Below, in pieces: positions 631 through 19,572 of a stretch of 20,000 nt of DNA. This DNA comes from Albugo candida. Lineage: Eukaryota. The stretch covers positions 356,026-376,025 of the forward strand of contig JBDOQK010000036.1 of assembly GCA_040437565.1 (NCBI GenBank). The letters are read 5' to 3'. The translations under genes were made by a program, and so were the position numbers. The notes below the pieces were generated by a model, which worked only from the letters and a program-made list of their open reading frames with translations, had not been told where the DNA came from and did no database searches. Positions within the stretch are counted from its first letter, which is position 1, and every line of letters begins with the position of its first letter.

Positions 631-680
631 GATGCATGCCAACAGGGAAGAAATATTACAATTCTGTGCTGTCGGTCAAA

Positions 681-1397
681 ATGGCTCCCACGTCGAGAAA
701 TAAAAAGATTAAGTCGAAAACGAATGGAGCCATCGTACAGAAACATAAATGCCCCTCTTCGTCTCAAGTTACATATGCGAACAGTGTTACGAACGTTATG
801 GAAGCTTTCACAGCATTTAAAACGTTGCACGTCAAGAAGAAACCAAGGCAAGAACACATCGTATTTGATTTACAGGATTATCATGCAGAGGACCTCAGCT
901 CCAACTTGAGAGATACTATATTTAATTTATACGAAGACAACATGAAAGAATTGTATGTAAAGTATGCGGACGGCGGCTACGATGCGGGGCAGAAGTATGA
1001 CGAATTATTTGAAGTATCGGCTCGTTATCTTCTGGTTTGGACGCGATCGGAAGAAAATGCGTGTGCTAGAGATACTGAGATAGCTACTGCAAACTTGTGT
1101 GCCTTTGTTCATTTCCGTTTCGTTGAAGAAGATGGCGCATCGATCATGTACTTGTACGAGCTTCAAGTTTGCAAAAGTGCCCAACGAATGGGCTTGGGAA
1201 AACACCTGATGCAAGTTTTGATGCTCATTGGCAACTCTCTCAAAATGGACATGCTAGTTTTGACTGTATTCAAGGAAAACTATGCAGCAATGGATTTCTA
1301 CAAGAAGCTGAACTTTGAAATTGATGAAACCTCCCCAAGCTTTTGTGGAGATGATTCGCAGTCATATGAGATACTGAGTAGGTCATTACAGCGATAA
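681..1397 (+). CDS. NAA40: N-alpha-acetyltransferase 40 (NatD)-like GNAT acetyltransferase
   Basis: IFNLYEDNMKELY...KYDELFEVSARYLLV, AFVHFRF, YLYELQV, acetyl-CoA motif QRMGLGKHLM, LTVFKENYAAMDFY...FEIDETSP...YEILSR match the NAA40/Nat4 family. ATG 681 (AAAATGG context) is preferred; an in-frame ATG at 636 is an alternative start. Confidence 0.88.
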   Translation: MAPTSRNKKIKSKTNGAIVQKHKCPSSSQVTYANSVTNVMEAFTAFKTLHVKKKPRQEHIVFDLQDYHAEDLSSNLRDTIFNLYEDNMKELYVKYADGGYDAGQKYDELFEVSARYLLVWTRSEENACARDTEIATANLCAFVHFRFVEEDGASIMYLYELQVCKSAQRMGLGKHLMQVLMLIGNSLKMDMLVLTVFKENYAAMDFYKKLNFEIDETSPSFCGDDSQSYEILSRSLQR

Positions 1398-1545: not shown

Positions 1546-3114
1546 TCATCTACCTTGTTGACGTTCAGCACGAATGTGCATTGTACACATCTCTCGATTT
1601 CGAGCCAATTTTTTGCAACTCGGAACCTTACATAGCTTTCCCCGTCGATGTATTTCACAAAGCCCGCCGCCACGATCTGTGCGAACACAACCTTCAATCT
1701 TACAGCTCAAGAAACCTCCATGCGTAGCACAAAAATTGCCGCGCTGAGCGCCTTTTTGACAGCCAACCGCATGACATCGTTTTCCCCCGCCATGAGCACG
1801 ACACAATCCCCCACCTTGACTGCTTTTACTACAATCAGGAAACTTGCAACGAGCACCACCACCATGTGCTTTGCACAAACCATGTGATTGTGATGCCTTA
1901 GAGCATCCTTCATGTTTGCATTTCTTTCCGCCTCCATGACCAATGCATAAATCACCATTTTGACTCGATTTGTTGCAACCGTCTATGGTACACTTACGAC
2001 CACCACCATGTGACTTACAAAACCCACGAGATCGTACTCGGCGTTCACATCCCGCAATACTACATTTCATGGCGCCCTTATGCGATGGCGTCATTTTTGA
2101 CGATGTTGTATTTATTTTTTTGCCAGAATCATGCATCATTCCTCTCGCAAAAAATTCGACACCCCCACGAGATATAAGATGTTGACCTGACGCAGACTGG
2201 TTCAATGAATTACCGGAAATAGCGATGGAATTGAGTTCTGATGGCTGGAAAAGCTCCTGATCCATTTCTGGGATTAGTCTATCGAGAGACTCGAAAGCTC
2301 TTTCCATTTGACCTAGTTCGCATGAGCCAGACTTTGCAAATTCTGGATTACAGTTGCTGATGTTTCCTTCATGTGAGTCAGCTAAATCACGACGAAGTGA
2401 GAAGGACAGAGGTTCAAACTCGAAAGAATCATGCTGGGCTTTTCTTTGTTCGAAATGGATTGGTTCGAGGTCGTTTATACTTTTTGACCTGGAACCAAAG
2501 AGAGTTGGTGGTAGTTGAACCGAATGTTTGCTCTGATTGCCAGTACTGATCTCAAGGTTATTTCCGTAAGGAATAGGAGATCGTGATAGTGGTGGAAATG
2601 AAGTTGGTGTAATTGAGCCAAGTTGCACGCTCTGATGCCTATTAAGAGTCGGCACATTTGCTAAAGGAGTGACCCCAAAGGTCGTATTGAGGCGAGTTTT
2701 TAGTAAATTCGAAGCCGATAAATAAGTGCCGTTGTAATAAGCGCTGTTATAGGACAATGAAGAGTTATCCGCTTGGTAATCTCTTGTCGGGGAACGATTG
2801 GGTAGCGATGTATGACGTGACAGTAGCACTGGAGTGGTACTTCCTTGACCGTTGAAACCGCTGACAGAAGGCAGCTGAAAATAGTGTTGCGCATGAGAGT
2901 TTCCAGATGCATTGGATGATGCTAACAGAGCCCCAAATGTCTTTGGTGAAGTATCAGCGGCACAAGTTTTCAATGAAGAGCTCAATGAGTCGGATGTATT
3001 CCATGAGCTGATGTCATAGCTCACGTTATTATATAGCGAATGGTTCGCAGTATCAAATGGTGCTCTGCGTCGTTGTTCAGTGTTTACATCGGGAGCACTT
3101 TGTAGGCCAGACAT
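1546..3114 (-). CDS. WRKY19-like cysteine/histidine repeat protein (putative zinc-finger regulator) with a low-complexity S/N/P-rich N-terminus
   Basis: Intronless ORF, first ATG at 3114 (the track starts at TTG 3123). The C-terminus has 7 tandem ~24-aa C-x4-C-x9-C-x2-H(GGG) units, a family expanded in oomycetes and other stramenopiles. Confidence 0.88.
   Translation of the reverse strand: MSGLQSAPDVNTEQRRRAPFDTANHSLYNNVSYDISSWNTSDSLSSSLKTCAADTSPKTFGALLASSNASGNSHAQHYFQLPSVSGFNGQGSTTPVLLSRHTSLPNRSPTRDYQADNSSLSYNSAYYNGTYLSASNLLKTRLNTTFGVTPLANVPTLNRHQSVQLGSITPTSFPPLSRSPIPYGNNLEISTGNQSKHSVQLPPTLFGSRSKSINDLEPIHFEQRKAQHDSFEFEPLSFSLRRDLADSHEGNISNCNPEFAKSGSCELGQMERAFESLDRLIPEMDQELFQPSELNSIAISGNSLNQSASGQHLISRGGVEFFARGMMHDSGKKINTTSSKMTPSHKGAMKCSIAGCERRVRSRGFCKSHGGGRKCTIDGCNKSSQNGDLCIGHGGGKKCKHEGCSKASQSHGLCKAHGGGARCKFPDCSKSSQGGGLCRAHGGGKRCHAVGCQKGAQRGNFCATHGGFLSCKIEGCVRTDRGGGLCEIHRRGKLCKVPSCKKLARNREMCTMHIRAERQQGR
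1575..2064 (-). repeat. Seven ~72-nt coding repeats (C-x4-C-x9-C-x2-HGGG)
   Basis: CSIAGC...CKSHGGG / CTIDGC...CIGHGGG / CKHEGC...CKAHGGG / CKFPDC...CRAHGGG / CHAVGC...CATHGGF / CKIEGC...CEIH / CKVPSC...CTMH. Confidence 0.85.
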
Positions 3115-3955
3115 TCTATTCAACAGATATGTGTGTTGTGATCGGAATTGTCTTTGCTTTACTCAGTGTAAATATTATATCACCGTATAGGACACCGCTT
3201 TGTGCAAGTAAAAACAATAGTAATGATGCAGACAAGCTACTGAACCTCCTTGGTCACCAAATCAAGTAGGAATTTGAAGAAAGAATGCAACACACGTGGA
3301 TTATTACAAACACCCTATAAAGTCAGATGGCAACGTAATCATTTGTTCTGTCTCCTGCCTTTCACCAAAACAAGCTGGCAAGGTACCTTATACCAAATTG
3401 CGCTATCCGAATGTAGGGTTGATGCAATGCACCGCTACTGTATTCCTCCATCAAGCTCATTGATATCATGTTAACAAGGTCAAATGCGGCATATGTTGGA
3501 TTTTCCGCTCGAAAAGAAAACCTTGTACTCGTCAAAGGGAATGCTGATTGATTGCAGCGGGTCGAGTATAGAGAACTGTGAGAGTAGGCTGTCGCGATTG
3601 CACCTGTTTGCAGGAGAAATCAGGTGTATGTAGTGCAGAAGTGTGAGATGGAATGGTGACCCATCGATATATTGTGCCGATCAAATATCGGTGGAATCTA
3701 ATACATAAATACGTCAAGTACCGCGGCTCCTAGTTGTGCCTGATTCCTATAAATGACATCTCATTACACAAACCAAATCGAGTACATTACACTCGGTCTG
3801 GTGTGTGCAAAAGTAGGTTTTATGAAGTGGCTATTCTTGTCGGGATATCAGTGACGCCTGATGCAGCAGAGCTGAGCAAGGGTCGGGGTGTTTCCGTTAC
3901 GCTCATAGGGACGAGTGTCACTTGTCCCGAGAAGTCGAAATTCGCTCGTCTGAAA

Positions 3956-6900
3956 ATGATACAGCCAGCTGACGGCCCTATGGACGGGATAAACTTCCAG
4001 TTGAGCGCTAGTGATCTGATAAAGCTGATTGAAACACCGCATGAGCATTGTGGCGAACAACTTCAGAAAATCGGCGGCATTGAGGCAGTCGCACGAGCCA
4101 TTCATGTAGACTTGCGAAAAGGACTTAACACTGATGATGTAGCGGATCTCAAGCAGCGCGTGAATGCTTTTGGAAGCAATGAGATAGCTCCGCCCAAGTC
4201 GAAGGGTATTTTGGAATTAATGTGGGAGGCTCTTCAAGACATTACTATCATAGTCCTGACTTGTTCAGGGGCTTTATCGGTCGTTCTATCTTCCACAGTC
4301 GGTGATCATCCTGACACAGGCTGGATCGAAGGATTTTGCATCATTATATCAGTCATAATTGTCACGCTTGTGACGGCACTGAACGATTACCAGAAAGAAA
4401 GACAGTTTAAAGCGTTGAACGCTGTCAAAGAAGATGAAAAGATCAAAGTGCTAAGGAATGGAGTTCCTTCGGAAATCAGCAAATTGAGTCTTGTGGTCGG
4501 TGATATTTTGCGAGTTGATCTTGGTGATATTATTCCAGCCGATGGAATTGTGTTTGATGAAAAGGAGTTGAAAATGGACGAATCAGCAATGACAGGAGAG
4601 TCAGATTTACTCGCAAAGAATGCAGAACATCCATTTCTGCTGTCTGGAACCAAGGTGATGGAAGGTCTAGGAAAGATGTTGGTCGTCTGCGTGGGAGAAA
4701 ACTCGCAGGCTGGTATAATCAAGAAACTCATCATAGGAAAATCAAATGAGGATAAGAAAAAAGTCAAGCCAACATCAGAGAAAGCAGTTGTGCTCCCCAG
4801 ATTGGATAATTCGAGTAAAGCAGAAGTGCAGCCATTACACTTTGATACCTCTTCAGCAAAGATAAATCCAACAAACACTGAAACCGTTGTTCAGGTCGGT
4901 CGTCCGACATCCAATTCCGCTGATCAGAAAGAAGAGTACGACGAGCATAATTCTTTGTCACCGCTGGAGGCAAAGTTGAACAATCTTACTGTTCTTATTG
5001 GAAAGCTTGGGACTGCAGTGGCAATAATTGTATTCATCATCATGTCAATACGATACTCTGTGGATACATTTCATCGTGATAAGCATCCGTGGCATAGTAA
5101 GTATGTGTCTGATTACCTGACTTTCTTTATCGTTGCGATCACCGTGCTGGTTGTTGCAATACCGGAGGGCTTACCGTTGGCTGTGACCATCGCCTTGGCA
5201 TATTCCGTCAAGAAAATGCTACTGGACAACAATTTGGTGCGACATCTCGATGCTTGTGAAACGATGGGAAGCGCTACCACAATCTGTTCTGACAAAACTG
5301 GCACACTTACAACGAATCGTATGAGTGTGATGCAGCTTTGGCTAGGCGGGCAAAAGTTTTTCCCTGCAATTTCAGCTTCATCAGCAATGTCAGAAGCCGT
5401 CAGGGACGCTTTCTGCAACGGAATATGTGTCAACTCCACTGCTGAGATCTTACGACCAAAAGTTGCTGGTGCACAGCCAGAGCATACTGGAAATAAGACT
5501 GAATGTGCACTATTGCAGTTTGCAAGCGATTGCGGTGTCGAATATGCCAAAGTTCGAGCCAGTGCAGAAATAGTGCATATGCTCACATTCTCAAGCAAGA
5601 AGAAACGAATGTCTGTCGCAGTTAAACTAACATCTACGTCATGCCGTGTTTACACAAAGGGAGCTACTGAAGTTGTTTTGGGACTTTGCAGTAAATTGAG
5701 GCGTCTTGATGGCTCCGTTTCGAGTTTAGATGCTGGCCAGAAAGATGACATCAACAGCACTGTGATAGAAGAATTTGCCTCACAAGGATACAGAACTCTG
5801 TGTCTTTCGTATCGAGATGTGGAATGCACGGCCGAAGGAATCCGAACATGGAGTGATGATGACATTGAAAAAGATCTTACATGTATAGGAATTGTCGGTA
5901 TTGAAGATCCTGTGCGTTCCGAAGTTCCTGGTGCTATTAAGTTATGCAAAAGGGCTGGTATTCTAGTTCGAATGGTGACCGGTGATAACATATCGACTGC
6001 ACGGTCAATTGCACACAAGTGTGGTATTCTCACTCATGGGGACAACGCTACTGTTATGGAAGGGCTGGAGTTCCGTAAGCGTGTTTTGGATAGTAAGGGC
6101 AATTTAATGCAGGATGAATTCGACAAAATCTGGCCAAATTTGCGCGTTTTGGCTCGATCTTCTCCAAAAGATAAATATACTCTTGTCACGGGATTGATAC
6201 AATCAAATGTCATGCCTTATGGACCACAAATTGTGGCTGTAACGGGTGACGGGACCAATGATGCGCCTGCCTTGAAAAAAGCCAATGTCGGGTTCGCAAT
6301 GGGTATTAGTGGAACAGCAGTCGCTAAAGATGCATCCGATATCATTTTGATGGATGACAATTTCACATCAATTGTAAATGCGATCAAATGGGGAAGGAAC
6401 GTTTATGACTCAATCGCTAAATTTCTTCAGTTTCAAATGACTGTCAATATTGTTGCGATTTCACTGGCGTTCCTTGGCGCCGTAATTTTGAAACAATCTC
6501 CTCTATCAGCGGTGCAAATGTTATGGGTGAATCTCATAATGGACTCTTTTGCATCTCTTGCACTAGCAACAGAATTTCCCAATCAAGCGCTGCTTGAACG
6601 ACGTCCTTACCCTAAGACCAGACCTATCATTTCGCGTATGATGAGCAAGCATATCCTCGGACAATCTATCTACCAGCTTGTTGTTTTGTTGGTGTTAGTT
6701 TTTTGTGGTGACAATCTACTCAATATCTCATCTGGACGCTACGATGACTTGCCGGAGAACAAAAAGAAGGACCCCACGGTTCACATGACCATCATATTCA
6801 ACGTGTTTGTCTGGGCACAGCTGTTCAACGAGCTCAATTGTCGCAAGATTCACGACGAAACCAATATTTTTGAAGGAATGACTAAAAATCGCACGTATCT

Positions 6901-7105
6901 TATTGTGTGTATCTTTCAGATTGCGATGCAGTTTATTATTGTCCAGTTCACAGGAAAGTTTTTCGAGTGCAAGCCTCTCAACGGAAAACAATGGCTTATA
7001 TCGATACTATTAGGTGCGGGGGCATTGCCAGTGGGCCTCATATTACGGCTCATTTCATTCAAACACGTACCTTCGTGGATGGTGATTTGTGCGGATGCCG
7101 AATAG
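3956..7105 (+). CDS. P-type IIB Ca2+-transporting ATPase (PMCA-type)
   Basis: DESAMTGES, VVAIPEGLPLAVT, phosphorylation motif ICSDKTGTLT, KGATE, MVTGDN, AVTGDGTNDAPALKKA, WVNLIMDS, FNELNCRKIH. First ATG at 3956 (MIQPADG...), intronless, 1049 aa. Confidence 0.96.
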   Translation: MIQPADGPMDGINFQLSASDLIKLIETPHEHCGEQLQKIGGIEAVARAIHVDLRKGLNTDDVADLKQRVNAFGSNEIAPPKSKGILELMWEALQDITIIVLTCSGALSVVLSSTVGDHPDTGWIEGFCIIISVIIVTLVTALNDYQKERQFKALNAVKEDEKIKVLRNGVPSEISKLSLVVGDILRVDLGDIIPADGIVFDEKELKMDESAMTGESDLLAKNAEHPFLLSGTKVMEGLGKMLVVCVGENSQAGIIKKLIIGKSNEDKKKVKPTSEKAVVLPRLDNSSKAEVQPLHFDTSSAKINPTNTETVVQVGRPTSNSADQKEEYDEHNSLSPLEAKLNNLTVLIGKLGTAVAIIVFIIMSIRYSVDTFHRDKHPWHSKYVSDYLTFFIVAITVLVVAIPEGLPLAVTIALAYSVKKMLLDNNLVRHLDACETMGSATTICSDKTGTLTTNRMSVMQLWLGGQKFFPAISASSAMSEAVRDAFCNGICVNSTAEILRPKVAGAQPEHTGNKTECALLQFASDCGVEYAKVRASAEIVHMLTFSSKKKRMSVAVKLTSTSCRVYTKGATEVVLGLCSKLRRLDGSVSSLDAGQKDDINSTVIEEFASQGYRTLCLSYRDVECTAEGIRTWSDDDIEKDLTCIGIVGIEDPVRSEVPGAIKLCKRAGILVRMVTGDNISTARSIAHKCGILTHGDNATVMEGLEFRKRVLDSKGNLMQDEFDKIWPNLRVLARSSPKDKYTLVTGLIQSNVMPYGPQIVAVTGDGTNDAPALKKANVGFAMGISGTAVAKDASDIILMDDNFTSIVNAIKWGRNVYDSIAKFLQFQMTVNIVAISLAFLGAVILKQSPLSAVQMLWVNLIMDSFASLALATEFPNQALLERRPYPKTRPIISRMMSKHILGQSIYQLVVLLVLVFCGDNLLNISSGRYDDLPENKKKDPTVHMTIIFNVFVWAQLFNELNCRKIHDETNIFEGMTKNRTYLIVCIFQIAMQFIIVQFTGKFFECKPLNGKQWLISILLGAGALPVGLILRLISFKHVPSWMVICADAE

Positions 7106-9232: not shown

Positions 9233-11797
9233 AGCACAAGGAATGGACGATGGAAATATCCGGATATTGTTGTAGTATACAGCTCTTCGTATACAGCGGT
9301 ATACAAAAGCATTCTCAGTGCAGATGTCTATTGCGAGCATCAAGATAAACTTGATGGATCACGCGTATTCGATCAAGCTTTTCGGTAATATTGCTCATTC
9401 AAGACGCAGTTTCCCTTCTTCTACTGGTGATCGACAAGATATTCAATCAAGATCATATGATTGTACATAATATGATACAAAGTCAAGCCCATTAAGAATA
9501 CCTGGAGCATTCTTGAAGCGTAGTCAGCTAATGACGAACAAGCACTCGTTCCGAGGACTCTAATGGGGTGCTACGTCACATTATGCCGGATAAAGCTCCC
9601 GTTTTAGCATCCAGAAGATGAGATCACCTCTATCACAAAGGAGAAAAACAACTGGAGAAGTTCGGGATAGCTGAATATTTCGTATACTGCACGCAAGAGC
9701 AAAAAAAAGTCGACATATTCAATGAATTATCGAGGCGATAATGATGTATGAATGCACTGCATTGTTGCTTGGAAAAACTGTTGCTCATGTACAAAGCGAT
9801 AAGACGCTCAAGAAAACGTAGTCTCGTGGTATATGAAACGTGAATAGAGCTCTTCAAGCTACATTGACAGTGCTCATAAAATCCTGAACAAACATGAGGA
9901 GATGACCTCGCGGTTCAGCCGGCATGTTGTGTTCCCAAAAATCTTGACTTGACGAAAATAAATGTCGCTAGAGGCGCTGTTGTTCATTGTCGTCTGATGC
10001 TGTCGATCCATCATAAAATGTCGTAGAGATAGACTTTCGGTAAGGGTAACGCGCACAGAAAACTACAAATTCTTATGCGTTTCCCCATTCAGGTCCAATC
10101 GCAAATGTGTAAGTTTGAACGGCCCTAGAATAGTCCAAATCGCCAACTTTATTGTACCTTGACTGTCTCGAAGGAGTTTTTACTGCTCTGTTATCGATCG
10201 ATACACATTATTTCTTTTAGCATCTTCGAAACCAGAAACGAAGAAAGAATTAGAAGCAATAAATAAGATCATGCACAGAGAAGATCGGAAGCGACGAGCA
10301 TGTTTCTAAAAAGGGAGGAGCTTTTCGCTATTGACTTGAGTGCTAGAATCTACGGATCATAAACAGAGCTTTTTGAAACTAAAGACAAGTAAAGTATGTT
10401 TCGTACGGGACGCTACCTACTCAATGGATATCATATAATTGTGCATGCACGATCGTGAGCGCGGAGCCTATGCACAACATGGAAGAGCTTTCTTCACAGG
10501 TTCCTATGTAGCATCAGGTTCATTCTATGAAAGATTTAGTCAAACCGTAGACTCGGATAGAAGCCAGAATTGTTGCATGTATATGATTGAAAATAGCGAG
10601 CACGCCTTTAAATTAAAATTCCTTCTTTCTGCATCATGCTGTACACCTCTGTAGCGAAGTAAATTCTCTCCAAGCAATACATCTTCAAAGAATCAAGCGA
10701 AATATTTTGGGCAGTGCTAGGACATTACAATGCTTAATATGTGATACTTTGAACCCTACATATCACACCATGGAGTTACGTATCAGAAATACATGAAGTA
10801 ACGTCAACCACCATTTTGCAAGCCGAGATGACGTTTGAGCAGAATCATAAGTGCTCTAAGCTTACGCATCAAAACTACGCTTGAAACAGCTTTCACTATA
10901 TTCTGTGCATGAAAAGTTTATTCAATGAATGAAGAAGCTATTATTTTACACCCGTCACGTATTTATCTGAATGATAGATGCAGTTTGTATGTGAAGCGGA
11001 TGTACCATGCGCATGAGTTAAACCTCAAGTCAGGTGATTCCCACAAGGTTATGGAACGTGTTCGTTCAAATGCCGAATATAAGCTGTGATTTTTACATCA
11101 TAATTTCCATAGATTACGAGATCCTCCGGAAGTTTGTACAGTAGCCATCGTCGTCATCCATCTGATTCTCAAAAATGACATTTTACATACCGATAATGAT
11201 CACAGCATCAACGAAACCGAGAAAATTCCTTCTATCCTTGCATATACCTCCCGACATAATATACAGTGACAGACATAACTTCCGTAATCAAAGTATAATC
11301 ATGTGCCTTGCTCACTACATTGGCACAATCTCAGACTAGCTGATAAGGCGTTGTTGGCTTATACGAAGCAACGACTAGACATCATGGTAACAAATGAATT
11401 GTGTGACATTAAGGATGACGTCGAGACGATTTTTGCCAGTATGGCATCGTATTTTTCGACCGAATGTATACATCATCTAATGAATCAACAGATGTGTTAA
11501 GGTCCTCTAATATGAGTACACGCATACGAGACGTGATGTACGCTTTATGCGCACAGCCTTTTCTTCATGCAGTGAGCACGTCGAATCACGCACATCATAG
11601 AGACCGATCGCCTTTTTCAAATGTGTATCACTCTAAAGCTTATCTAAAATTGAAAATTTTGATGAATCGGCTGTTATGATGAGCTCAGCGTTGCTTAGAA
11701 CAAGCCAAAAAATTCATTTTGATCGCGTGTCTTTAAAATTGTATCTCTGTAAGCTGGATTTATTATCATTCTTTATTCCCGTACTTGTATAGATCAG

Positions 11798-11813
11798 CCT
11801 CATTCCTCAATTT
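11798..11813 (+). promoter_or_regulatory. Oomycete INR+FPR core promoter element
   Basis: CCTCATTCCTCAATTT matches consensus GCTCATTYBNNNWTTY at all positions except the first; ends 25 nt upstream of ATG 11839. Confidence 0.7.
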
Positions 11814-11933
11814 TCTTGTGCACAATAAAGCTAATACGATGAAAACTCACATCTTGGTTGCGAATGTGGTGACGCTTGTGGCCTCATCAGACGGAGCATT
11901 ACTGCGAAAAGTTAATGAAGAAAGATTAGACAC

Positions 11934-12592
11934 GGGAACAACTTCAACTGGAGTGAAATTGGAGACCAGCACGAACTTCAATAGCATCAACCAGGTTACN
12001 NNNNNNNNNNNNNNNNNNNNNNNNNNNNNNNNNNNNNNNNNNNNNNNNNNNNNNNNNNNNNNNNNNNNNNNNNNNNNNNNNNNNNNNNNNNNNNNNNNNA
12101 CAACTTCAACTGGAGTGAAATTGGAGACCAGCACGAACTTCAATAGCATCAACCAGGTTACCGGTCGGGATCTTGTTATTGATGATAATCATCACGGCGA
12201 CCGATTGCAACCTCACGACGGTGACACAAGACAACCTGATGATAATAGCCCACATCAGTCTCATAATGCAAATCATATCATGAACAAAGTTAGCAATATG
12301 ACCCAAGCAATTCATTAACCATTTTGGATGGTCCATTTGGTAACGGGTCACTATTCCATCCAAAATGGTTAATGAATTGCTTGGGTCATATTGCTCACTT
12401 TGTTCATGATATTGATTTGCATTATGAGACTGATGTGGGCTATTATCATCAGGTTGTCTTGTGTCACCGTCGTGAGGTTGCAATCGATCGCCGTGATGAT
12501 TATCATCGATAACAAGATCCCAACCGGTAACCTGGTTGATGCTATTGAAGTTCGTGCTGGTCTCCAATTTCACTCCAGTTGAAGTTGTTCCC
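11934..12592. repeat. Long inverted repeat: left arm 236 bp (11934-12331 after collapsing the gap overlap), 24-nt spacer 12332-12355, right arm 237 bp (12356-12592)
   Basis: Direct reverse-complement comparison; arms differ by 4 substitutions (left-arm positions 12166, 12180, 12201, 12291) and one 1-bp indel (~12275). Confidence 0.93.
12000..12099. other. Assembly gap (100 N) with duplicated flanks
   Basis: 11938-11999 is identical to 12100-12161 (62 bp), suggesting an unmerged contig overlap. Confidence 0.9.
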
Positions 12593-12984
12593 ACCAGGCT
12601 ATGACGATGTAAAGCAGCAACCATATTATAATTATTACTGCACTGAATTAGTAGCCCGAACAATTGAGTGCGAGGATTCTGATATGCAGAAGGCTGTATC
12701 ACCAACTGATGGCTCTTGTACAGATTCGCCTCGTCGGACACCTGCTGAACCTTGTGCAAGTTCTCCTCGACGACCAGAAAAAACTGATGGTAAACCTGAT
12801 GACCCTCATTCAAGTCCTTCTTATCCCACAAAATTTCCCCCTCCTTCACGCCCGCCTCCACCTGTACCTGGTAATTAATAACCTATTTTATTTTATACTT
12901 GAATAATAAAAAATAAAACAAAATTTATTTTTTCATACTAAACCCCCTCCAAAGCTATCAAAATGTGCTGTACTCTTCGTCCCG

Positions 12985-13047
12985 CTTAGTTGAAGTTGTC
13001 TAGATTACTAGAATTAGACGTAAATGACTTCTCTAATGCCTAAACTA
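12985..13047 (+). repeat. Partial copy of the dispersed LTR-like repeat
   Basis: gcttagttgaagttgtctagattactagaattagacgtaaatgacttctcta aligns with 19770-19835 and with the reverse complement of 13620-13685. Confidence 0.7.
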
Positions 13048-13096
13048 CAATAAATAAACAAAATGAATGCAATGTTGGTCTAGAAAGCCGCAGCTA

Positions 13097-13196
13097 NNNN
13101 NNNNNNNNNNNNNNNNNNNNNNNNNNNNNNNNNNNNNNNNNNNNNNNNNNNNNNNNNNNNNNNNNNNNNNNNNNNNNNNNNNNNNNNNNNNNNNNN
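13097..13196. other. Assembly gap (100 N)
   Basis: Run of Ns. Confidence 0.95.
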
Positions 13197-13430
13197 AGAG
13201 AGGTGTCTCAATCTCCATATCGGCCTCTGATTGGCCAATTACCACGTCAGCCGGTAAAGGGTAGGTGAGGACGTGGGCGCATCCTTTAAAGGGAACGGGT
13301 CACTATCGGACGAGTTACGAGGAGACGAGTTACCCACATCCGGTGATGTAACGGACGAGTTATTAGGATACGGATGGTCAGCATCCGGTGAGGTGACGGT
13401 AGGAAGGCTTGAGATGTCGATAGAAACCAT
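13197..13430 (-). mobile_element. Possible degenerate N-terminus of a retrotransposon gag-like ORF
   Basis: S/P/D-rich ORF MVSIDISSLPTVTSPDADHPYPNNSSVTSPDVGNSS... with internal short repeats, starting ~70 nt downstream of the LTR-like repeat on the same strand; frameshifted near 13260. No diagnostic gag motif seen. Confidence 0.35.
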
Positions 13431-13500
13431 TATCTTCGACAGGGTAGAAAGTTTGTTGTATTCTGTTTGGCAGGTATGCAGCAGCTGGAAGATAGAAAAG

Positions 13501-13707
13501 TGACTCTCGTACCTTAGTGGTGAACACTACCACACTGTAGGACTGGAAACGAGGGAGATATTATTATCTCTCACAGGTATTTTACAAAACGTTTTCTATA
13601 TGTATATATGTTACTTAAGATAGCCTAAGCAACTAGAGAAGTCAGTAAGTTTAATTCTAGTAAGATAGACACCTTCAACTGAGCTGGGTACGGACCCTCT
13701 ACTTACA
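13501..13707 (-). mobile_element. ~207-bp LTR-like dispersed repeat (TG...CA on the minus strand)
   Basis: Minus strand begins TGTAAG and ends GAGAGTCA, with a central TATATACATATA. Roughly 80% identical by eye to 19754-19949 in opposite orientation. Confidence 0.6.
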
Positions 13708-14562
13708 ATTACTTTATACTAACGCCACATTGCAAGTGAATAAACAAAAATTGAGCTCCTGCATCCAGACACATCACCCGAGATTTTGTACAAACTTCAT
13801 ACGGGATGTAGTTGTATTCTAACTCAAGTCCTTCCAGCTTTATCCATATATCGCGTCGGCCACTGGTTTATTCAGCACGGTTTTTCTTCGTGTTTGCTTC
13901 CTACGGTAACTTGGAAAATGCAATGTTTTAATTGAACCTATCCAGTCTACCGCTCAGCGAATATGTTTGACGTGTCAAATTAGGTTATTTGCACTAGAGG
14001 ATCTTGTTTTGTGACATAGAAGTATCAAATATATGGTAGACCAAATGCTACAACTTAATCACAAGTTCGATACGCATATACTTACGAGTATCCTTACCTC
14101 ATTGCTCTCACAAGAATCTGGCACAGTTTGTGTCCTTGTCACGAGTGTACGGGTTTGTTCCCCAATATATCTTTGACAGATTAGGTTGGAGTAGTCTGTA
14201 ACCACCAACGGAGGCAAGCATGGTGGAAATAGTTTCGTAAAATAGGAATAGAAAGGTAATAGAATTCGATATTGCATGTACAATCCAGCTGTCGTACCAA
14301 CTTGCAAGTCCGGTAGAAAACATTTACATAATACCGTCAAATTTGATTTCAGGCTACTTCTAGGACTACACCATCAGCGTCATCGAAGTCGGTTTTTGCT
14401 GAATTTTTAATAGCACAATCATGAGAGTCGAGATCAGGGCACTGGAATCTTAGAAAACGGTTCTCGGATGTAATGGAGAATAGAATTCAAGATGACTGAT
14501 ACATTGATGATACGTTTCGAGATCTGTATTATACTTGTGGATAAAGCTGAGATAATCTGTAC

Positions 14563-19472: not shown

Positions 19473-19572
19473 NNNNNNNNNNNNNNNNNNNNNNNNNNNN
19501 NNNNNNNNNNNNNNNNNNNNNNNNNNNNNNNNNNNNNNNNNNNNNNNNNNNNNNNNNNNNNNNNNNNNNNNN
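19473..19572. other. Assembly gap (100 N) with duplicated flanks
   Basis: 19432-19472 is identical to 19573-19613 (41 bp). Confidence 0.9.

Follow-up and report, generated by a model that had tools for sequence, protein, structure and literature searches.

Inverted partial duplication in a secreted-looking gene of Albugo candida: a probably heritable disruption with latent hairpin-RNA potential

A lineage-specific, secreted-looking gene of the oomycete Albugo candida probably carries a real, heritable inverted partial duplication, so that the gene is disrupted and left with a latent potential to form hairpin RNA. The locus lies in a window of 20,000 nucleotides, the whole stretch of DNA analysed here, in which all coordinates are counted. 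As it stands, it is a well-documented loss of a candidate secreted-protein gene through inverted duplication. Were it transcribed, it would be a clean natural case of one mutation turning a protein gene into a hairpin-RNA precursor, and the precursor would retain the gene's own infection-stage promoter. Of the readings weighed below, a gene disrupted by local inverted duplication, its hairpin-RNA potential latent, is the most likely.

The features of the locus, in their order along the window, are these:

11800-11813, plus strand: INR+FPR-like core promoter motif (TCATTCCTCAATTT), 25 nt upstream of the ATG at 11839
11839-11999, plus strand: 5' coding part, with ATG, a signal-peptide-like hydrophobic N-terminus and LLRK..NEER; the sense arm begins with its last 66 nt (11934-11999)
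12000-12099, no strand: false scaffold gap, 100 N inside the left arm with an exact 62-nt overlap on both sides
12100-12331 together with 11934-11937, plus strand: sense (left) arm, 236 nt after gap collapse
12332-12355, plus strand: spacer, or hairpin loop, 24 nt
12356-12592, minus strand: antisense (right) arm, a 237-nt inverted copy of the coding segment whose frame is open on the minus strand
12594-12878, plus strand: 3' coding remainder, 94 open codons and a TAA (12876-12878), Pro-rich and homologous to the C-terminal part of the relatives

Architecture of the inverted repeat

Three contiguous inverted-repeat pairs together tile the whole repeat: 11934-11999 against 12527-12592 (pair I2, 66 nt, 100% identity), 12100-12275 against 12413-12588 (I1, 176 nt, 98%) and 12275-12331 against 12356-12412 (I3, 57 nt, 98%). 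Once the gap is closed up, the arms measure 236 nt (left) and 237 nt (right). They differ at five places, namely by four substitutions (12166/12522, 12180/12508, 12201/12487 and 12291/12396) and by a single-base length difference at about 12275/12413. Three of the substitutions fall in the outer arm, where two are synonymous and the third replaces R with W in the inverted copy. Complementarity stops at the arm borders, there being none between 11933 and 12593 or between 12332 and 12355. An earlier note on this DNA had described a 236-bp segment followed, after a 24-nt loop, by its own 237-bp reverse complement with five differences, and both the repeat pairs and the arm comparison bear this description out.

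The same note had expected such a transcript to fold into ~236 bp of near-perfect dsRNA. RNA folding of 12100-12900 indeed gives a single long stem, with a predicted energy of -485.4 kcal/mol as against -197.7 +/- 6.9 kcal/mol for shuffled sequence (z of -41.6). None of the 20 shuffles folds as well, and chance is dismissed as an explanation of the stem. In structural terms, then, the locus has what marks a hairpin-RNA locus, a long near-perfect inverted repeat with a short spacer.

The 100-N gap within the left arm is a scaffolding artefact made of two overlapping contig ends, because the 62 nt at 11938-11999 recur exactly at 12100-12161, on the other side of the gap. The window as written therefore carries a false duplication inside its left arm. 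In one of the public runs considered below (X1), the left-flank contig, which ends at 11989, shares 30 nt (k-1) with the arm contig once both are placed in arm coordinates, and hence no sequence is missing at the gap.

A gene interrupted by its own inverted segment

The open reading frame that begins at the ATG at 11839 starts with MKTHILVANVVTLVASSDGALLRKVNEER and has an N-terminal hydrophobic stretch, MKTHILVANVVTLVASS, which we regard as a candidate signal peptide only. A search with the N-terminal 53 residues among longer proteins brought up two relatives, both at 62% identity, of 340 aa (P0003) and 314 aa (P0004, hypothetical protein ABG067_005933 [Albugo candida]). Among the sequence comparisons, only these relatives point to the genus Albugo. 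When these are compared with the window by tblastn, their N-termini (residues 1-49) match 11839-11997 in frame +1 at 62% identity. Further along the plus strand, residues 194-297 of P0003 match 12645-12860 (40% identity, E 3e-13) and residues 212-271 of P0004 match 12705-12860 (48%, E 3e-12). The arm, taken from the minus-strand inverted copy, aligns with residues 19-120 of P0004 at 31% identity (E 2e-5 for the single comparison), and in this alignment the arm end ...QYDPSNSLTILD stands opposite ...QPYNASNIYTIFN.

The window thus runs 5' end, arm, [spacer, inverted arm], 3' end, and without the bracketed portion this order is collinear with that of the uninterrupted relatives, at a protein similarity of 31-62% only. 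Because the inverted copy sits between parts that are collinear with the relatives, the gene has been interrupted by its own inverted segment, much as the earlier note proposed when it spoke of an inverted self-duplication. The Pro-rich 3' end that had been placed after the arm likewise finds its counterpart in the C-terminal matches of the two relatives. Its reading frame is in the phase expected of a simple insertion, the inverted copy of 237 nt being a whole number of codons; such agreement in phase would arise by chance alone one time in three. Taken together, the sequence comparisons support the view that the gene was once continuous and later took up an inverted copy of coding sequence from its own upstream part. 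Read in the frame that stays open in the antisense arm, the spacer goes on as ..TILDGPFGNGSL, and it is probably native coding sequence from downstream of the arm.

The two relatives have the same order of parts as the window gene, from the N-terminus through a Q/H/P-rich middle to a Pro-rich C-terminal part, and they share with it the want of any Pfam family. They differ in being uninterrupted, in having VDGGRK in place of NEER and in extending past the window gene's stop. By eye only, the spacer peptide ..TILDGPFGNGSL resembles TIFNEPHSSGH of P0004, a likeness that suggests a native origin of the spacer. Beyond these two proteins the arm protein has no match among proteins of 49-158 aa, and 0 matches at E <= 0.001 in 1.84 billion representatives. 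At E <= 0.01, Pfam gives no family for the arm, the 3' part, P0003 or P0004. The Atlas model of P0004 has a pLDDT of 0.38, and the family is predicted to be disordered; in the Atlas search the best feature match, at 0.77, was below lead level and all structure matches had TM <= 0.25. The encoded protein is pictured as disordered and rich in Gln, His and Pro, and the gene is predicted to be lineage-specific.

What has become of the gene since is best judged from its sense arm, which, set against the inverted arm, lacks 1 nt near 12275 and carries a stop codon at 12291-12293. The annotated frame, 11839-12318, ends with a TAA at 12316-12318 and encodes ~105 aa after gap collapse. The inverted copy interrupts the coding sequence and contains a stop in plus-strand phase. 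To us the locus looks like a drifting pseudogene or a severely truncated gene. One could instead suppose that the gene still works, making a product of ~105 aa with a signal peptide and LLRK..NEER, and that the hairpin in its 3' part is incidental. In favour of this are an intact ATG, hydrophobic N-terminus and promoter-like motif, and a frame at 11839-12318 that is open apart from the false gap. We nevertheless find a working protein gene improbable. The relatives are 314 and 340 aa long, and the conserved C-terminal part has been lost from the frame; the protein collection holds no gene model of at least 94 aa with the window gene's N-terminus; and a 236-bp stem in the mRNA would presumably impede translation or set off RNAi.

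The inverted repeat in independent runs

An inverted repeat of this kind might also be made in the computer, as a fold-back chimeric contig or by the head-to-head joining of two haplotypes or paralogues that share a segment, and the earlier note had named a fold-back chimera or an inverted joining of haplotypes as the finding that would undo its reading. The setting of the repeat invites the thought: the contig that contains it measures 997 bp and is bounded on either side by a 100-N gap, with a contig end only 4 nt into the arm. A palindrome within a small contig between N gaps need not mean an assembly artefact, and the recurrence of the structure in contigs of independent runs, laid out below, weighs against one.

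The stretch 12100-13096 is contained in 20 rows from 15 studies of public runs, of which none is recorded as RNA, and four of the 24 runs listed were compared over 11000-14500: X1 (2015), X3 (2024, a plant metagenome), X4 (2019) and X19 (2025). All four consist of Logan k=31 contigs, whose 31-mer graphs cannot phase two arms with two flanks. Depths are low (3-8) in X3, X4 and X19, and the window itself may have come from one of the compared runs.

In X1, a 16.6-kb contig (depth 53.9) crosses from the left flank into the arm and ends 56 nt inside it, at 11989, and a 397-nt contig (depth 44.6, 12537-12933) comprises the right flank with 56 nt of the inverted arm, from which it follows that both outer flanks enter the same arm end. 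X3 has a matching right-hand contig (12537-12904). In X4, the arm is matched exactly by a 237-nt contig (12356-12592), into which each flank contig extends by 30 nt. As this is k-1, one short of what the tool counts as a bridge, only X1 (at both outer junctions) and X3 (at the right one) are strictly bridged. The arm contigs span 12356-12566 in X1 and X3, 12356-12592 in X4 and 12170-12331 in X19. They end at the border of arm and spacer, which is 12356 in the first three runs and 12331 in X19. A branch at this border is what an inverted repeat predicts, because in a k-mer graph the spacer is entered in both orientations.

The arms also vary from run to run. Position 11959 is G in X1 and X3, an extra difference between the arms that makes the branch at 12566, and at 12487, 12508 and 12522 the X4 arm contig agrees with the left arm. 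This variation fits arms that mutate independently, and not one segment that was assembled twice.

The read depth of the arms tells the same story. Of the 181 31-mers of 12356-12566, 68 are common to the left arm, and two copies with popped bubbles would give 1.376x depth. The depths of the arm contigs and flanks are as follows:

X1: arm contig 67.4 (predicted 67.8); flanks 53.9 and 44.6; ratio to mean flank 1.37
X3: arm contig 7.43; flanks 7.4 and 4.4; ratio ~1.26
X4: arm contig 8.5; flanks 5.9 and 5.57; ratio ~1.48, with 1.45 predicted (207 k-mers)

An arm depth of ~1.4x the flanks matches two diverged copies. The bin at 12287-12403 has depths of 60.4, 5.49, 7.51 and 3.99 in X1, X3, X4 and X19, respectively, and what remains of it after subtraction of the arm contig is an 84-nt spacer unitig (12302-12385) at 45.6, 3.4, 5.6 and 3.3. 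By this arithmetic on bin depths, as opposed to a direct reading, the spacer seems to be at about single-copy depth in all four runs. The extra cover in the bin is not the arm contig placed twice, because the left-arm bins next to it have no cover in X1, X3 and X4.

On this evidence the inverted repeat is probably no assembly chimera, and we hold an artefact of either kind to be highly improbable. The check is confined to short-k-mer contigs, and among the contig pieces listed for the four runs none spans the spacer, which leaves a chimera some room. Against it, X1, X3 and X4, which come from three studies (of 2015, 2024 and 2019, respectively), show the same graph topology, and every solution of the graph still needs arm, spacer and inverted arm. 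A chimera would be rare, whereas the spacer is estimated at about single copy in all four runs. A haplotype join would halve the depth of the flanks, yet the 16.6-kb left-flank contig has the same depth as the right flank. The five fixed differences between the arms, varying between runs, speak against both forms of the artefact.

A secreted-protein candidate

The open reading frame had been presented in the earlier note as effector-like, with a signal peptide and LLR..EER. Of this, LLRK and NEER are indeed there, but no canonical RxLR is. The peptide in the motif region, read directly, is GALLRKVNEER, in which the first position of RxLR is L and not R, and so no canonical RxLR follows the hydrophobic N-terminus. 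NEER itself is found in the window gene, and both relatives have VDGGRK at the same place. Nor does the protein have a recognisable effector domain such as WY/LWY, no Pfam family being found at E <= 0.01. In the secretome of A. laibachii, RXLR and RXLQ motifs are described as not enriched (PMC3130010). Judged from the sequence, "secreted-protein candidate" is a safer label than "effector".

Hairpin-RNA potential and its targets

Could the locus be transcribed? The consensus TCATTYYNCAWTTT, which we take to be the oomycete INR+FPR consensus, has one match in the 20 kb, where 0.03 are expected, and at least one match in 5 of 200 shuffles. The sole match is the motif at 11800-11813, and the INR/FPR promoter motif that had been reported before the ORF stands. 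Transcription of the locus is therefore plausible. X19, guessed to be RNA, was considered as evidence of expression and rejected, as it covers intergenic DNA at the same depth of ~4.

If read through, a transcript would form ~236 bp of near-perfect dsRNA and might then serve as a Dicer substrate. As the genome has no near-identical second copy, any siRNAs would be directed chiefly against the transcript from which they came. The depth of the arm k-mers in X1, 67.4 against the 67.8 expected from two arms alone, shows no near-identical target copy, and a third near-identical copy is excluded by the same equality. Neither k-mer depth nor protein searches thus turned up the targets that the earlier note had suggested, an intact allele or paralogues of the family. 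Among the joints listed for the four runs, none skips the inverted copy, which argues weakly against an intact allele.

How far, then, might the locus be a functional hairpin-RNA gene, expressed from its own promoter and giving 21- or 25-nt siRNAs that silence paralogues, an intact allele or host genes? In its favour, the locus has an intact promoter-like motif and a near-perfect stem of ~236 bp, and the structure has been kept in the runs of several studies and years. The broader biology is favourable as well. In Phytophthora, inverted repeats are strong sources of small RNA, with the highest small-RNA output per Mbp, mainly 21-nt (PMC3804510), and homologues of DCL1, DCL2 and RDR are reported for Albugo (PMC4791657). 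A role as siRNA precursor would be plausible.

Set against this are several observations. There is no near-identical target, the depth of the arms being that of the two arms only, and the arm protein is without relatives at E <= 0.001. Both arms have substitutions, which differ between runs, and no conservation of pairing is evident. The DCL2 of A. laibachii departs from RNase III motifs (PMC4791657). As to a cross-kingdom role, Arabidopsis ago1 shows no added resistance to A. laibachii, unlike to Hyaloperonospora (PMC7297541), a result that is indirect and applies only if the species is the same. A functional hairpin-RNA gene is, in our estimation, unlikely.

Separate judgements may be attached to the steps. 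That the locus yields small RNAs confined to the arms is possible, though on balance doubtful. That such small RNAs act beyond destroying their own precursor is a good deal less probable, because there is neither a third near-identical copy nor a paralogue at the protein level. A host-directed role of the small RNAs finds no support here. The boldest reading would make this a newborn hairpin-RNA gene, in which one template-switch event in an obligate-biotroph oomycete turned a secreted-protein gene and its promoter into a functional siRNA precursor of 236 bp of dsRNA, whose siRNAs would silence diverged members of the family or, at the time of infection with the promoter switched on, enter the host; we rate it as very unlikely. 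Judged by the titles listed in a literature search, the small RNAs of Albugo are apparently unstudied.

Origin and relation to known systems

For the disrupted gene that we prefer, the simplest origin would be the insertion of a 237-nt reverse complement of the coding segment lying 24 nt upstream, between that segment and the remainder of the gene. We infer that this may have occurred by a switch of the replication template to the complementary strand and back; alternatively, fold-back priming at a break, followed by end joining, could have had the same outcome. The insertion would have taken place without detectable loss of flanking gene sequence. It would have broken the reading frame, and the sense arm would later have gained its frameshift and stop. 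Two hallmarks of a template-switch or fold-back duplication are found at the locus: the inverted copy lies beside its source with a short spacer (24 nt), and the flanks are collinear with an uninterrupted form, as far as protein similarity of 31-62% only can tell.

The events treated in studies of template-switch hairpins are reportedly short, and 237 nt is much longer. The likeness lies in the outcome, a single event that copies adjacent sequence in inverted orientation and so leaves a perfect stem with a short spacer, and template switching in DNA replication is presented as a one-step source of such perfect hairpins (PMC8794818, PMC10710096).

Two further systems invite comparison. Plant proto-miRNA or hpRNA genes are said to be born by inverted duplication of their target genes, a model credited to Allen et al. 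(2004, Nat Genet). Here, too, an inverted gene duplication gives a long foldback complementary to its parent gene. The plant model keeps an intact founder as target, whereas in Albugo the parent gene itself is disrupted and a second copy was not detected.

The other is the class of inverted-repeat small-RNA loci of Phytophthora, for instance pin-IR2758, described as a 714-nt inverted repeat with heterogeneous 21-nt siRNAs (Fahlgren et al. 2013, PMC3804510). Both are long near-perfect inverted repeats in an oomycete genome, with intramolecular dsRNA predicted. The Albugo repeat differs in having been built in place from secreted-protein coding sequence behind its own promoter, and it belongs to another genus.

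Surroundings of the locus

The minus strand has an open frame of 258 codons (12106-12882), which was weighed as a possible gene and set aside. It is without a start that has a signal peptide, its arm part is merely the copied coding frame, and the relatives match the plus strand of 12594-12878 instead. Beyond the 3' coding remainder the DNA is AT-rich, as the earlier note had remarked in describing a UTR-like tract. The AT-rich tract is there, but much of it after 12888 is high-copy repeat. Next to the locus are genes for a PMCA-type Ca-ATPase, a GNAT acetyltransferase and a Zf_WRKY19-repeat protein. For the Ca-ATPase, among the 8000 candidates with the most words in common, the best named matches come from other oomycetes at about 73%, and the Albugo proteins listed, at 63%, are paralogues. 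All three neighbours have their best named matches in oomycetes.

Genomic setting of the disrupted gene

The secreted-protein candidate (ATG at 11839) that is broken by an inverted copy of its own coding segment lies on a stretch with three neighbouring genes.

633-1397, plus strand: GNAT acetyltransferase (E 1e-8)
1546-3162, minus strand: Zf_WRKY19-repeat protein, six repeats (E 2e-44)
3956-7105, plus strand: PMCA-type Ca-ATPase, intron-less

Given such neighbours, the surroundings of the disrupted gene are those of ordinary housekeeping genes, and not a gene desert.

A high-copy repeat adjoining the 3' end

Directly downstream, k-mer depth reveals a further feature.

12888-13096 and 13197-13690: high-copy repeat, directly 3' of the disrupted gene

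In X1, a public sequencing run of 2015 with a single-copy depth of ~50, the summed k-mer depth rises to 9,148 at 12872-12988 and to 58,345 at 13574-13690. The k=31 contigs of the runs compared here (X1; X3, 2024; X4, 2019; X19, 2025) leave many loose ends at 12987 and 13684. Because the region also carries imperfect inverted ends of 42 nt (12981-13022 versus 13646-13687, 83% identity), its sequence suggests a MITE-like or DNA-transposon element of ~700 bp.

All four runs contain a contig joint that leads from 13245 to 13418, skipping 172 nt, and this may reflect a length variant, or a copy of the repeat at another site that is shorter than this one. A tandem pair of 45 nt, with 73% identity between its units, is also seen within 13304-13393.

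A piece of the downstream repeat might conceivably also lie upstream of the disrupted gene, at 11090-11109. X3 depth is raised in the bin 11000-11116 (98 versus 7.4). A contig joint from 11109 to 12990, whose shorter side is just 20 nt, is present in X1 and X3.

Two forms at 14001-14500

Farther downstream, at 14001-14500, X1 and X3 each yield a pair of variant contigs, similar in depth, that differ at ~5–6% of sites (13 to 16 mismatches over 186-269 nt); X4 shows a single form only. Either the segment is present in two copies, or heterozygosity is high here.

Scaffold gaps and a minus-strand frame

Exact overlaps flank two of the three 100-N gaps in the window, at 12000-12099 (62 nt) and 19473-19572 (41 nt); these two gaps are therefore false, as are the short scaffold duplications found there. 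The flanks of the third, at 13097-13196, have no such exact overlap.

A stop-free frame of 258 codons on the minus strand (12106-12882) crosses the 3' part of the gene and the inverted arm, then the spacer and, in antisense, the sense arm. We judge that it arises incidentally, from the coding frame that was copied and from Pro-rich codons on the opposite strand.
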